Virus record (IMG/VR): IMGVR_UViG_3300032332_000236
Span: 1-30,729 of that record
Direction: 5' to 3' (one strand)
Source: a virus
Taxonomy: Duplodnaviria > Caudoviricetes
Length of the DNA stretch: 30,729 nucleotides
Made by a program: the position numbers and the translations under genes
In this document: positions 17,913 to 26,189 of the stretch, in pieces
Numbering within the stretch: position 1 is the first letter of the stretch
Layout of the letters: each line of letters starts with the position of its first letter
The notes under the pieces: generated by a model
Seen by the model: only the letters and a program-made list of their open reading frames with translations
Told to the model about the DNA's origin: nothing
The model's database searches: none

Positions 17913-18109
17913 TTTGTACCTCCAAAAATTGTGCCAAAGTCATTAAACATTTCTGTTAATACAACATTTTTGTTGTGTTTTGGTTTGCCACACGCTTGAC
18001 GAATACAGTCAACTTGCTCTTGTGTAAGCTCGCCACCGTACTCCATGTCATCGAGCGATGACTCTAAAAACTCTTCGTGTTCTAGCATTAGTTGGTTTAA
18101 TTCACCCAT
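17909..18109 (-). CDS. Hypothetical protein, first gene of leftward operon
   Basis: Start reassigned to ATG 18109 (AAAGGGGA RBS): MGELNQLMLEHEEFLE. Confidence 0.7.
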   Translation of the reverse strand: MGELNQLMLEHEEFLESSLDDMEYGGELTQEQVDCIRQACGKPKHNKNVVLTEMFNDFGTIFGGTK

Positions 18110-18219
18110 ATAAATCCCCTTGAATGGCATAGCAAAATTGCTATAAAAGAATATTAACACAAGTAAATTAAAAAAGTAAAGTGTATGCAAATAAACAACA
18201 TATAGGTTAAACTTCGTGA
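18110..18219. promoter_or_regulatory. Divergent promoter region
   Basis: Rightward ATGCAA(18185)-N17-TAAACT(18208-18213), 6 nt before the ATG. Leftward TTTACT...TGtTAATAT. Inverted repeat ATAGCAA-AA-TTGCTAT at 18129-18144. Confidence 0.6.
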
Positions 18220-18501
18220 ATGGAAAGACAATTAAAACTTACAGACACAGCAATTATTGACCTGTTAGGCGGTACTGCAAAGGTGGCAAGAATGTGCAAG
18301 GTAGACTCCGCAGCAGTATCTAATTGGAAGGTTAGGGGTATACCAGCCGATAAATATATGTTTTTAGGGGCAAGGATTGAAGAAGCTAGTCATGGTCTTG
18401 TGACCCGTCAAGACCTTTTTCCTAAGAATTATTTTTTAATTTGGCCTGAGTTGTTGAAAAACAACGCATTCGGCTTGCAAAAGGATTCAGACGAGGAGTA
18501 G
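18220..18501 (+). CDS. Cro/YdaS-like HTH transcriptional regulator
   Basis: IIDLLGGTAKVARMCKVDSAAVSNWK.RGIP...IE.AS.GLVTRQDLFP...IWPEL, the typical Cro-like pattern; first rightward gene. Confidence 0.85.
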   Translation: MERQLKLTDTAIIDLLGGTAKVARMCKVDSAAVSNWKVRGIPADKYMFLGARIEEASHGLVTRQDLFPKNYFLIWPELLKNNAFGLQKDSDEE

Positions 18502-18504
18502 AAT
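18475..18504 (+). promoter_or_regulatory. Putative sigma70 promoter for the structured element
   Basis: TTGCAA(18475-18480)-N18-TAGAAT(18499-18504); predicted start near 18510 coincides with the first hairpin. Confidence 0.55.
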
Positions 18505-18509
18505 CACCT

Positions 18510-18700
18510 TCCTATCTCGAGGCTCTAACGACATACCAGGGGATAGGATTAATAGCGCTACTGGGGGTAATGGTTGAAACAGCGCAATATAGGTGGCGAA
18601 GATAGTGCCTATACCATGCAAGACTGTCGGGTGATGCGATTCCTCAATGGAAGCATTTGAAGGCAAACCTAGGTAGGCTAGGTGTGCTTAAACCTCTTGG
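18510..18700 (+). ncRNA. Candidate multi-hairpin structured RNA (or ssDNA origin element)
   Basis: Five consecutive stems plus loop-to-distal complementarities in a 315-bp gap with no ORF; see findings. Confidence 0.6.
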
Positions 18701-18737
18701 AAGTAACTATAAGTATCTAGATACTATCCATTAACAT

Positions 18738-18816
18738 AAATACAACACTAGGGAAATTACTTAGTGACTTCCCCGCAAAATAATAAGAAACTAAGTTTTT
18801 AACAAAGGGGAATTAC
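18738..18816 (+). promoter_or_regulatory. Phage-specific promoter/leader cassette, copy B
   Basis: AAATACAACAC-TAGGGAAATTACTTA-GTGACT-N17-GAAACT ... AACAAAGGGGAATTAC-ATG. Confidence 0.65.
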
Positions 18817-19128
18817 ATGGGTTCATTTATAAAAATTGTATTGGTTTTTGCGTCAGGGTTTTTGTTGTGTCAATACACACATGAGGCAGAAGCCCAAACA
18901 GTACAGATGACCAATGCACAAGGTTACAATGTTGGTTCAGTACAAATTAACGGTAACACAGCACAATTTGTAAACCCTATGGGAGTTACTACTCAAATAG
19001 CTACGCTATATCCAGGTCAAGTTATCATTCAGACACCAAGTGGTGTAACTACTGCGGTGATTGGCAATACAGGCTACACAGTACCGCCAAGCCCAACAAC
19101 ACCAATGACACCCAAAGTTATGCAATGA
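18817..19128 (+). CDS. Secreted/periplasmic beta-rich protein
   Basis: Signal-peptide-like MGSFIKIVLVFASGFLLC...AEA cleavage motif; Pro/Thr-rich tail; strong RBS. Confidence 0.7.
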   Translation: MGSFIKIVLVFASGFLLCQYTHEAEAQTVQMTNAQGYNVGSVQINGNTAQFVNPMGVTTQIATLYPGQVIIQTPSGVTTAVIGNTGYTVPPSPTTPMTPKVMQ

Positions 19129-19244
19129 GTTTTACCATCTACACGCATGATGGCATGAAAGTAATTCAATGGTTCTTTAATATAGATGAACTTATTAAAG
19201 CAATGATTAACAACCCACTTGATAGGTATCATAGGAATGTTTGA
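19125..19244 (+). CDS. 39-aa hypothetical protein (not in ORF track)
   Basis: MSFTIYTHDGMKVIQWFFNIDELIKAMINNPLDRYHRNV; ATGA overlap upstream and 8-nt overlap downstream. Confidence 0.55.
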   Translation: MSFTIYTHDGMKVIQWFFNIDELIKAMINNPLDRYHRNV

Positions 19245-19608
19245 TGAATTCTGGTCTTTATATCCACGAAAGATTGCTAAAGCAACTGCAAGAAAAGCCT
19301 GGGCAAAACTTTCAGCAGAACAACAACTTATGGCTGCAAAAGCTATTAATACACATTGCGAATACTGGAAAGCCAAAGAAACTGAGTTAGAATTTATACC
19401 CCATTGCGCCACTTGGCTTAACGGTGAACGCTATGAAGATGAATTGGTAATAGAACCCAAGAAAGAAAAGATTGATAAAAAGTGGATGTTTTCTAACGAG
19501 GGTATTGAGGCCAAAGCAAGAGAACTTGGAGTCTTGGGTACTGGTTATGACTCATATGACAGTCTTAAACGCAAATGTATGAACAAGCTAGGTATCGCTG
19601 TGCAGTAA
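19237..19608 (+). CDS. Stand-alone C-terminal domains of a phage replication initiator
   Basis: FDEFWSLYPRK.AK..A.KAW and FIPHCATWLNGERYEDE, followed by W..S.EGIEAKARELG; I recall these motifs from C-termini of lambdoid O-like initiators. ATG at 19237. Confidence 0.65.
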   Translation: MFDEFWSLYPRKIAKATARKAWAKLSAEQQLMAAKAINTHCEYWKAKETELEFIPHCATWLNGERYEDELVIEPKKEKIDKKWMFSNEGIEAKARELGVLGTGYDSYDSLKRKCMNKLGIAVQ

Positions 19609-19793
19609 GGTATTTGTGTTATTTACGACACAAAAAAGGTTTGAAATGGTTTCGCAATTACATATCTGAAAAAGAAAATTTACATCAATATTTTGCAGAT
19701 TTTCAAGAGCAATACACATTAGGAAATAGGGGAGAGTACGGTAAATGGATATTGAAAAATACATTGTTGCAGCAACGGGGCTTGGGTATTTAG
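19575..19793 (+). CDS. Hypothetical protein (resembles DUF7696 as recalled)
   Basis: RYRCAVR.L..LR...G..W...Y and GNRGE.G.W motifs; follows the initiator-like gene. Confidence 0.6.
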   Translation: MYEQARYRCAVRYLCYLRHKKGLKWFRNYISEKENLHQYFADFQEQYTLGNRGEYGKWILKNTLLQQRGLGI

Positions 19794-21604: not shown

Positions 21605-21952
21605 TTAAAGCTCTAGAGGGTCAAAGCCTAACTCAGACGAGATACGGTGCGCTCTATTACGAAACTCCTTATCGTGATGAGTCCACTTGCTCGATTTGTA
21701 ACGGCTCATGTGGATACATTCATGGCACAAAACACGAATTACCGTATCAAGATGACCGCAACGAGCAGAAGAAATAGTTATTGTATGTTCGTACTTTTCG
21801 CCATCATCGTATAAATAACTACCCATCAACTGTGGGTCGCTATCCACAATAAAACAAATCTGCTCTGGTAATGGCATATTCCACCTATCAAAAGGCTTCA
21901 TGCAATAAATTGCTGAATATAGATTACGAAGGATAGGTTCTGTCAGTTTCAT
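21605..21952 (-). CDS. SprT-like zinc metallopeptidase-domain protein
   Basis: VLCHECIH (HExxH) followed by HDKEF; ATGA-coupled to the phosphoesterase gene. Confidence 0.75.
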   Translation of the reverse strand: MKLTEPILRNLYSAIYCMKPFDRWNMPLPEQICFIVDSDPQLMGSYLYDDGEKYEHTITISSARCGHLDTVIRVLCHECIHMSRYKSSKWTHHDKEFRNRAHRISSELGFDPLEL

Positions 21953-22908
21953 ACTTGATGTATCTTGCCTCTAAATTCAACTTCATCCTCACCCCATACC
22001 CTAATCATTTCAGGCTGCAATAACTTGCTGCGCTCAAAAGATAACATTACAAAGCCACTATTCCAATCTTTAGGCGTATCTTCGGTATAACTAAATTGCT
22101 GACCATTAGGGTCGGCAAGCGTGCCTGTTTGTACTCCCCAGCGTGTGCCGTTGTAATCATTAAATGGGATAGCTGAAAGTACATGGGTATGTCCAGTAAT
22201 CATATTCACACCAGAATTGACAGCGTTATTTCTGCCGCCTGTCCATCCACCTTTCCAACGATGTTTAATACAAGTATCTTCATTTACCCAAAAAGACCAA
22301 CAAGGTTGCCACATAGGGAAGTAGTCTTTAAGGCTAGTGCCAGGTATACCCTCAAACGATGGAAGGTTAGCCACAATGTTAGCTTCTAGTCTTTGGTCGT
22401 GATTACCCATTGGAAAAAACAATTTAGCGCCTTTGGCTACAGCTTCAATTTCTCCCAAGAAATATTGACAAGCCTCCAGCTCCTCTTTCATTGTTGGCAG
22501 CTTACTCCAATCAGTACGAGGAAAACGACTAATAGAAGCACCATCTAGAGCGTCACCATTGCATACTATAGCAGTCGGGTTAAACTCTTTAATCATTTCA
22601 ATAAGAGCTTTAAACGCTGTAGTAGTTTCATCAGGCCAAAAGTGGGCATCACTAAATACAATGACTCGCCCTTTTTCTATATCCATACCTCTGCGTACAT
22701 TGCCAGGGGTTTGTTGTATTTTCTTTGTATAAGCTGGATTTTGGCTATTAAATGTATCTAATTTGATACGCAGTCTATTTTCTATTGACCTACGCCTTGC
22801 CATTACATTTCTAACTGCTATTTGGTGTATTTTTGCAAACTCACTTGGACTACCAACTTTATTCCAAGACTCAATCCATTCTTCATCCGTCAAGTGATAG
22901 CCAGCCAT
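21949..22908 (-). CDS. Calcineurin-like metallophosphoesterase with N-terminal HTH-like extension
   Basis: SDAH, NGDALD, GNHD, KH and GHTH motifs are all present in order. Confidence 0.88.
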   Translation of the reverse strand: MAGYHLTDEEWIESWNKVGSPSEFAKIHQIAVRNVMARRRSIENRLRIKLDTFNSQNPAYTKKIQQTPGNVRRGMDIEKGRVIVFSDAHFWPDETTTAFKALIEMIKEFNPTAIVCNGDALDGASISRFPRTDWSKLPTMKEELEACQYFLGEIEAVAKGAKLFFPMGNHDQRLEANIVANLPSFEGIPGTSLKDYFPMWQPCWSFWVNEDTCIKHRWKGGWTGGRNNAVNSGVNMITGHTHVLSAIPFNDYNGTRWGVQTGTLADPNGQQFSYTEDTPKDWNSGFVMLSFERSKLLQPEMIRVWGEDEVEFRGKIHQV

Positions 22909-24467: not shown

Positions 24468-24561
24468 TTACAAATTCACCGTGTAACTCAGACCTAACTT
24501 TGGTTGGGCTGTTTTTACAAATTTACCGTGTAATATTCACCCAACTTTGGTTGACCTGTTT
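24468..24561. repeat. Imperfect 47-bp tandem duplication with internal palindromes
   Basis: Units 24468-24514 and 24515-24561 match at 38 of 47 positions; each contains TTACA-N9-TGTAA and AACTTTGGTTG. Confidence 0.85.
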
Positions 24562-24728
24562 TCCATCATTTGTTTGAATTGTAAGCAAGCCATGCCGATG
24601 TAATTAGGCGGGCTTTGCGCCCCCGTCTCCCATCTTGTGTATGTAACCCTATGCACTCCAAGCAAAGCGCTTGCGCCCTCTTGTGTAAGTCCTAAGGATG
24701 AGCGCCACCCTTTCAGGTCAAAGACCAT
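24537..24728 (-). CDS. XRE-family HTH regulator
   Basis: LKGWRSSLGLTQEGASALLGVHRVTYTRWETG; start at ATG 24728 with GGGGA RBS. Confidence 0.85.
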   Translation of the reverse strand: MVFDLKGWRSSLGLTQEGASALLGVHRVTYTRWETGAQSPPNYIGMACLQFKQMMENRSTKVG

Positions 24729-25971: not shown

Positions 25972-26115
25972 GTTTAATTCTCCCTTTGTTTTACTGCGTT
26001 GATGTGTACTACATGATTGAATTGTAGCGTTGCACTACATATATGATATTAGGACAAACCCTTATATACCAATATATTTTGATTACTGTTGTTTTTATAC
26101 AAATTGTGATATATT
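25972..26115. promoter_or_regulatory. Divergent control region between the early operon and terS
   Basis: Leftward -10 TACAAT (26026-26021) overlapped by TGTAG-N7-CTACA; TAGG-N7-CTTA box at 26050-26064; TGTTGTTTTTATAC at 26087-26100; rightward extended -10 TGaTATATT at 26107-26115. Confidence 0.55.
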
Positions 26116-26189
26116 GCGTTCAATAGAATCAATGGCTTAGAGTTTAATTAAATCCTTAATTGCTGAAAGTTATAGAAAGCTAGTAAACC

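Follow-up and report, generated by a model that had tools for sequence, protein, structure and literature searches.

In ColE1, as described in PMC5043065, the replication transcript stays hybridized to its template and is extended by Pol I; this plasmid RNA II is 550 nt long. ColE1-type replicons also involve an RNase H cut and an antisense RNA I that is complementary to the 5′ end of the primer. The MRB plasmid replicons of Vibrionaceae likewise combine an RNA II, of 465 nt, with an antisense RNA I (PMC3035462), and, together with PAGEV, ARRPOF and GEBRO (PMC5737381), they are described as structured non-coding elements of 200–500 nt at or near origins. Among phages, the cluster A mycobacteriophages are presented in PMC7157519 as an either-or system: sister phages replicate via the RepA protein or via a non-coding RNA region, as part of plasmid-like prophage maintenance beside parABS in Actinobacteria.

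The element analyzed here, type A, lies in a whole virus record of 30,729 bases (the window), which contains genes for a major head protein, portal, terminase, holin, and endolysin. It would share with ColE1 RNA II the proposed logic, in which a promoter-driven folded RNA opens and primes the origin without a sequence-specific initiator. However, it is about 195 nt long, much shorter than the RNA II of both ColE1 and MRB, it belongs to a phage, and it is often accompanied by accessory phage proteins. It has no sequence or Rfam similarity to RNA II, and no antisense partner was found in the window: neither a complementary RNA I, nor an Rfam match to RNA I, nor a promoter-like or terminator-like site on the − strand over the element. 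MRB, PAGEV, ARRPOF, and GEBRO are plasmid-borne, and the window, types B and C, and the other element types described below have no Rfam match to them. The mycobacteriophage origins show the same pattern, a choice between protein and RNA. In the phages studied here, by contrast, the slot belongs to the lambdoid early replication module and can be filled by any of several RNA folds. By analogy with these systems, the element is, on balance, probably an RNA-primed, ColE1-like origin that replaces the DNA-binding half and the iterons of the initiator. At the level of sequence, comparative analysis demonstrated its structure, its promoter position, its one-for-one exchange with unrelated folded elements, and its mutual exclusion with full-length initiators. 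The features of the locus are as follows.

18220..18501, + strand: Cro/YdaS-like repressor gene (PF15943, E 1e-8; PF14549; phrog_35), whose 3′ end holds the −35 box of the element’s promoter
18475–80 (TTGCAA) and 18499–504 (TAGAAT), + strand: predicted sigma70-type promoter, with a predicted start near 18510
18510–48, 18555–85, and 18589–612, + strand: core stems of RF02932 (Rfam model and covariation)
18536–39/18561–64, 18571–74/18613–16, and 18601–06/18623–28, + strand: pseudoknots (covariation)
18575–79, + strand: TGAAA loop, T-loop-like
18629..18703, + strand: 3′ extension beyond the Rfam model, with stems 18633–57 and 18662–88 and two imperfect direct repeats
18629–52 and 18680–703, + strand: the imperfect direct repeats, which change to the same letters together
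18704..18792, + strand: A+T-rich spacer (by composition), whose 3′ end is a conserved promoter-like pair
18764–69 (GTGACT), 17 nt, 18787–92 (GAAACT), + strand: the promoter-like pair, found by eye
18817..19128, + strand: 103-aa ORF with no family match, present in some relatives and absent from others
19125..19244, + strand: 39-aa ORF, likewise optional among relatives
19237..19608, + strand: 123-aa stand-alone C-terminal half of a lambdoid-type initiator (phrog_270, phrog_9327)
19575..19793, + strand: 72-aa conserved gene, found 3′ of short and full-length initiators alike

The leftward arm of the genome, with genes for an exonuclease, SSB, and Erf, diverges from the cro-like gene, and no helicase, primase, or polymerase was found among the scanned ORFs of the window. 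The gap of 315 nt at 18502–18816, which the initial annotation had described as free of ORFs, indeed has no ORF of at least 30 aa on the + strand, but the − strand carries a TTG-started ORF of 59 aa at 18487–18666. A coding role for the latter was rejected, as any reverse frame is open in at most 17 of 62 homologues. The gap has a higher G+C content (47.5%) than its flanks, with 33–38% just downstream.

Positions 18509–18632, i.e., the 5′ 124 nt of the element, match RF02932 (Betaproteobacteria-1) over model positions 1–120 of 120, with a score of 94.4 bits against a gathering cut-off of 49.4; no other Rfam family matches the window. A hit to an Rfam family, named in the initial annotation as a refutation, has thus occurred, albeit to a family of no known function. 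The motif itself is known, and what is new is its distribution, i.e., the pattern of exchange and exclusion, together with its uncatalogued interchangeable partners. RF02932 reportedly goes back to Weinberg et al. 2017. Rfam types it as ‘Gene; sRNA’ and gives no function. The motif is not named in the main text of PMC5737381, and a search of the openly accessible literature, the supplement of that paper excepted, returned no paper linking RF02932 to replication. On comparative grounds, the element is real, its 5′ part is an orphan Rfam motif, and the conserved element is about 70 nt longer than catalogued. In IMG/VR, about 670 stored stretches match one 16-base pattern of it.

All five stems of the initial annotation are present in the sequence. 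The fold of the single sequence does not exceed chance expectation (z −0.69, matched by 51 of 200 shuffles), and the evidence for structure is therefore comparative. In 38 homologues, hand-picked for spread and aligned with plain MAFFT, 83.3% of the cells were paired compared with 69.3% after shuffling, a level reached by 0 of 500 shuffles, and at most 46% were paired when the structure was slid along the alignment; the first stem was poorly aligned (59.9%). The three pseudoknot helices were paired in 98.9%, 95.9%, and 99.6% of the cells, with two-sided changes. Mutual information among 62 non-redundant copies of 147 extracted likewise recovered complementary pairs for the five stems and the three pseudoknots. 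The pseudoknots 18571–74/18613–16 and 18601–06/18623–28 had escaped the initial annotation, as had the Rfam match, and of the three distal pairings that it had drawn from the first loop only CCAG/CTGG stood; GAGG/CCTC and CGACA/TGTCG were paired in 55.0% of the cells compared with 55.2% after shuffling (303 of 500 shuffles as good). The loop at 18575–79, which we take to resemble the T-loop motif, reads TGAAA, TGTAA, TGAGA, or TGCAA among homologues.

The predicted promoter, TTGCAA-18-TAGAAT, is present, although on its own it is not significant, with 9 such sites in the window against 9.6 expected; its support is comparative. In close homologues, all 35 distinct upstream sequences have a TAnnnT −10 box that ends 5 nt ahead of the first stem, following varied genes, and a −10 box lies at a fixed offset in 12 of the 13 type-B copies that have no upstream terminator. 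The promoter-like pair at 18764–92 would start the downstream genes independently of the element.

These features bear on whether the structure works as RNA or as single-stranded DNA. Since G-U pairs outnumber A-C pairs by 206 to 44, the + strand is favored, as claimed. A primosome-assembly or primase site on the displaced strand, similar to pas/ssi, could also account for several observations: pas/ssi-like signals are exchangeable modules, G-T pairs can form in DNA, and the element abuts primase genes in some genomes. Such a DNA signal seems quite improbable, however, given the conserved −10 box at the 5′ edge and the loops of T-loop-like and of UUCG/GNRA-like type; in type B2, GNRA-like and UUCG loops swap, and a G4AG6 tract lies at the end (by eye). 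Furthermore, each of four runs, all from different studies, gave a single mapped contig of 155–179 nt, which lay inside the element without loose ends. Because the assignment of these runs to RNA is a guess and this very stretch was used to find them, the contigs are a weak hint of a discrete RNA. In runs X1, X2, X4, and X23, the contigs span genes plus the element and are thus uninformative in this respect, and uncovered parts are no evidence either way.

The two direct repeats of the 3′ extension scored on average 6.7 with their own partner and 3.0 with those of other sequences, the permutation maximum being 3.8 (66 sequences; kinship inflates these values). Pairing between the RNA of the first repeat and the template strand of the second is conceivable and would account for their joint changes. 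Twin sites for protein binding, or a folding switch, would fit equally well.

The protein encoded at 19237 consists of C-terminal initiator domains only, in agreement with the initial annotation. From its residue 2 onward, it matches positions 179–258 of 383 of phrog_270, a replication initiation protein (E 4e-19), and it comprises a helical domain (residues 1–75) and a small helix-extension-helix-like domain (82–124); the N-terminal DNA-binding domain is absent. Its relatives are all short (114–141 aa). The C-terminal half of lambdoid O-type/DUF1376 (PF07120) initiators is homologous to this protein, but these initiators also have an N-terminal domain and a linker with iteron-like repeats, both of which it lacks. 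The protein may resemble a DnaT/DnaD-like ssDNA-binding domain. It has no Pfam match, and its nearest named Atlas cluster is Phg_2220_C at 0.89, which serves as a lead only. A relative was modeled with a pLDDT of 88, and weak matches to SAP/Rho-N-like structures were obtained (Z 4.6–4.8, rmsd 2.5–3.0, 42–48 aligned residues); the structure searches revealed no clear relative, which is not evidence of a new fold.

The key prediction of the initial annotation was that the element accompanies initiators lacking the N-terminal half and is absent beside full-length ones. Loci were fetched with a profile of the short protein, with the 72-aa gene as a neutral anchor, and with full-length initiators (at least 200 aa) ending in the same domains. 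After removal of duplicates and of loci without cro in view, 200 distinct cro-to-initiator intervals remained. The prediction was borne out: exactly one structured element, either A or a type absent from Rfam, was present in 158 of the 159 intervals with a short initiator, and none in the 41 with a full-length one. The sole exception, L217, has a 249-aa DUF1376-type initiator and a P-like gene directly after cro; the short protein is kept and no element is present. Among the neutral-anchor loci, all 58 that had a short initiator and a visible cro carried A or B, and all nine full-length loci had neither an element nor a gap of 150 nt. Across 584 scanned loci, which overlap in part, an element was found in 442, the N-terminal half of an initiator in 73, and both in none. 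None of the ten near-complete full-initiator records (94–100% estimated completeness) carried any element type anywhere in the genome, with the window as positive control.

Of 14 full-initiator genes tested, 8 contained repeats spaced by 11 to 14 bp in the linker (no more than 1 of 30 codon shuffles as good), which may be read as iterons by analogy with lambda O. The window has no phased repeat array, and tblastn gave no match that would derive the elements from initiator coding sequence. In a weak tree of the anchor gene (66 columns), three changes between short and full initiators were seen, a single origin being possible, and A, B, and C were freely mixed. Since short and full initiators cluster by descent, the counts are not independent events; the comparative evidence for a role of the element at the replication origin is strong but lineage-bound.

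The same slot is occupied by several interchangeable elements. With the 19237 protein as query, 80 viral loci were obtained, to which that of the window was added. Cro and the 19237-type protein were both found in 74 of these 81 loci, and all 74 carry exactly one element: A in 39, B in 26, and C in 9. The three types share no detectable sequence, they are mixed even where the anchor protein is identical, and neither B nor C matched Rfam at E 0.5 in nine loci. Compensatory changes were observed in types B, B2, and C. Covariation was run on A, B, B2, and C only; types D–K were seeded from gaps in the loci themselves, and their self-hits are therefore circular.

At least ten other non-coding elements of 190–320 nt occupy the slot, and none in 19 scanned loci matched Rfam; they include L048:3669–3899, L014:3156–3344, L555 (after a primase), L222, L236, L275, L516, L533, L534, L543, L545, and L581. 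An optional leader, absent from the window, may stand between promoter and element (L011:1347–1494, L012:3221–3365, L014:2968–3150, L080:1954–2101, and L590:11430–11560). It comprises a short upstream site complementary to the loop of a long hairpin with a T run at its end; site and loop change together (by eye), and no Rfam match was found. This leader is reminiscent of the c4/P4-CI immunity RNAs. In L259, element B and cro are inverted relative to the short initiator and lie about 3.7 kb off, which reflects either an inversion or an assembly artefact.

This pattern also bears on two further explanations. According to the first, which had been put forward in the initial annotation, the 19237 protein is bound by the RNA, whose dedicated task as scaffold or guide would be to replace the protein’s DNA-binding domain. 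Seen from the side of the protein, the co-occurrence is near-perfect; the last 40 residues are weakly similar to the SAP/Rho-N nucleic-acid-binding folds, and the twin repeats could be twin binding sites. Yet unrelated A, B, and C elements swap beside near-identical proteins, the same C-terminal domains occur in full-length initiators without any element, and in L217 the protein persists without one. Furthermore, when viral loci were collected from the RNA side, the short protein was present in only 34 of the 60 A loci that had a long flank downstream, and in L123, L501, and L643 cro and A are present with the short protein not in view. Thus, the same protein stands beside at least three unrelated elements and the same RNA beside unrelated proteins or none. 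As elements also follow helicase-primase modules and occur in genomes without a recognizable initiator, the proposed partnership is not supported, and a dedicated pair is improbable. What all contexts share is that an HTH-bearing initiator is missing, rather than that the short protein is there.

According to the second, the element is a trans-acting phage small RNA or a selfish RNA, unrelated to replication, whose distribution follows phage lineage. The Rfam type, the multi-copy orphans described below, and the clustering by lineage would agree with this. It does not explain, however, why exactly one of several elements is present in 74 of 74 loci, never two or none, why the element is lost where a full initiator fills the slot (L217), or why the same exchange occurs in a second, unrelated module, the helicase-primase one. 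We regard this explanation as very improbable.

Element A is found in diverse contexts. In other A loci, a primase lies just upstream, or a ParB-like gene and an SF2 helicase lie downstream; in L157 and L446, A precedes a different headless O-like half with a P-like gene. Among 80 helicase-primase loci fetched with the primase, A lies 3–656 nt after the primase in 36, and some element type reaches at least 60 bits in 65, a count that is partly circular. The cultured Acidovorax phage AP1 has genes for a ParB-like protein, a helicase, and a primase, followed by A; blastn of cultured phages with the window’s element and with type B2 gave no match. Bacterial copies in GTDB (62) are mostly from Burkholderiales: 15 lie after a Toprim primase and 4 before the short protein. 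Orphans number about 30; they have their own −10 box and lie among unrelated chromosomal genes, some being truncated. Multi-copy orphans occur in Paraburkholderia and Caballeronia. Among 72,556 plasmid records, only two matched, both large replicons and one over 46 nt only; no small plasmid was found.

Some cases are less easily accommodated. No profiled replication gene was found in 11 of 24 RNA-anchored metagenome loci with long flanks (three with a T7-like primase-helicase by eye). A search run without a positive control found no short initiator or DUF1376 in five A-bearing records. In a scan of 96 selected ORFs from four of these, G001, G002, and G005 had no PHROG-named initiator, helicase, primase, or polymerase, and G004 had an O-like half; the scan left three terminally repeated A records with no named replication protein among the ORFs covered. 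In the L606 prophage, A lies on the leftward arm and the other arm carries an initiator-like ORF of about 170–240 aa and a DnaB-like gene, making it a possible exception to the exclusion between element and full initiator. The detrended GC-skew minimum lies within 500 nt of the element in two of five genomes; as it follows the switch in gene direction, it was not used as origin evidence.

The position of the element and its varied neighbors are also what supports the main rival reading, a cis-acting early-operon leader or RNA antiterminator, similar to put of HK022, by which RNA polymerase would read through downstream. In lambdoid phages, the slot after cro holds the nut/put sites. Moreover, a terminator-like GC+T run closes 162 of the 312 distinct upstream regions, and the element heads varied operons, with terminase (L089 and L107) and recombination genes among them. 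In some cases (G004 and L632), the element and the replication genes are on different strands, and it faces away from them. Nevertheless, an antiterminator gives no reason for the exclusion by the N-terminal half of the initiator. None of 32 downstream proteins (80–320 aa, within about 4 kb, from six full-initiator loci) matches a known antiterminator family, the downstream genes seem to have their own promoter (by eye), the window genome has a single copy of the element, and the orphan copies keep their own −10 box and share no downstream gene. We consider this reading possible but unlikely.

An element that is obligatory with the headless initiator, absent with the full one, and common to unrelated helicase-loading modules would most simply supply the opened origin. 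In the RNA-primed origin that we favor, transcription of 18510–18703 would start from the promoter at the 3′ end of cro, and the RNA would fold cotranscriptionally. The transcript may stay hybridized to the template near its own 3′ end, like ColE1 RNA II, and the resulting R-loop would separate the two strands next to the A+T-rich tract and provide a primer or an entry site. The replisome could next be loaded by the stand-alone C-terminal half of the initiator, by a helicase and primase, or by host restart proteins alone. The 19237 protein would thus act after opening and would not need to recognize a particular RNA. More tentatively, though as a serious possibility, unrelated and interchangeable pseudoknotted RNAs of 200–260 nt may serve tailed phages of betaproteobacteria as plug-in origins; each would take the place of the sequence-specific half of a protein initiator, along with its iterons, and would be combined with several helicase-loading modules or with host proteins alone, type A forming its R-loop by pairing of the upstream repeat with the downstream template.

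If true, this would assign a function to an orphan RNA motif common in freshwater phages and account for replication in many small phages whose initiator is headless or missing. The lambdoid early module would join ColE1-like and MRB plasmids and mycobacterial prophages as a site of RNA-primed initiation. The trigger of persistent RNA-DNA hybrids at origins is treated as speculative in PMC5043065, and several folds with one job would allow it to be tested by swaps and compensatory mutations. Small replicons for Burkholderiales might also result.

Several minor observations were made at related loci. In L442–L503 (Paraburkholderia, Caballeronia, and Burkholderia), a unit of about 400 nt, composed of a T-rich tract, a −10 box, an extra 5′ hairpin, element A, and a tail, occurs at as many as three sites per genome, amid unrelated genes; these copies could represent either remnants of small replicons or a mobile unit. 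In L477, an integrase, AlpA, and an HTH_39 protein precede element A in a satellite-like island. In L590:8985–9416 (− strand) and L632, an O-like C-terminal half is fused to an apparent ribbon-helix-helix domain, with element A on the opposite arm.

In the window itself, near-identical 23-nt ribosome-binding regions open the two arms and form an inverted repeat (18099–18121 and 18805–18827). The rightward arm contains an insertion on the opposite strand with SprT-like and metallophosphoesterase genes (21605–22908, − strand), and a 47-nt unit occurs twice between convergent genes (24468–24562). The sole other ORF-free gap of at least 170 nt (25972–26189; 29% G+C) lies 5′ of the packaging genes and is probably a late promoter region.
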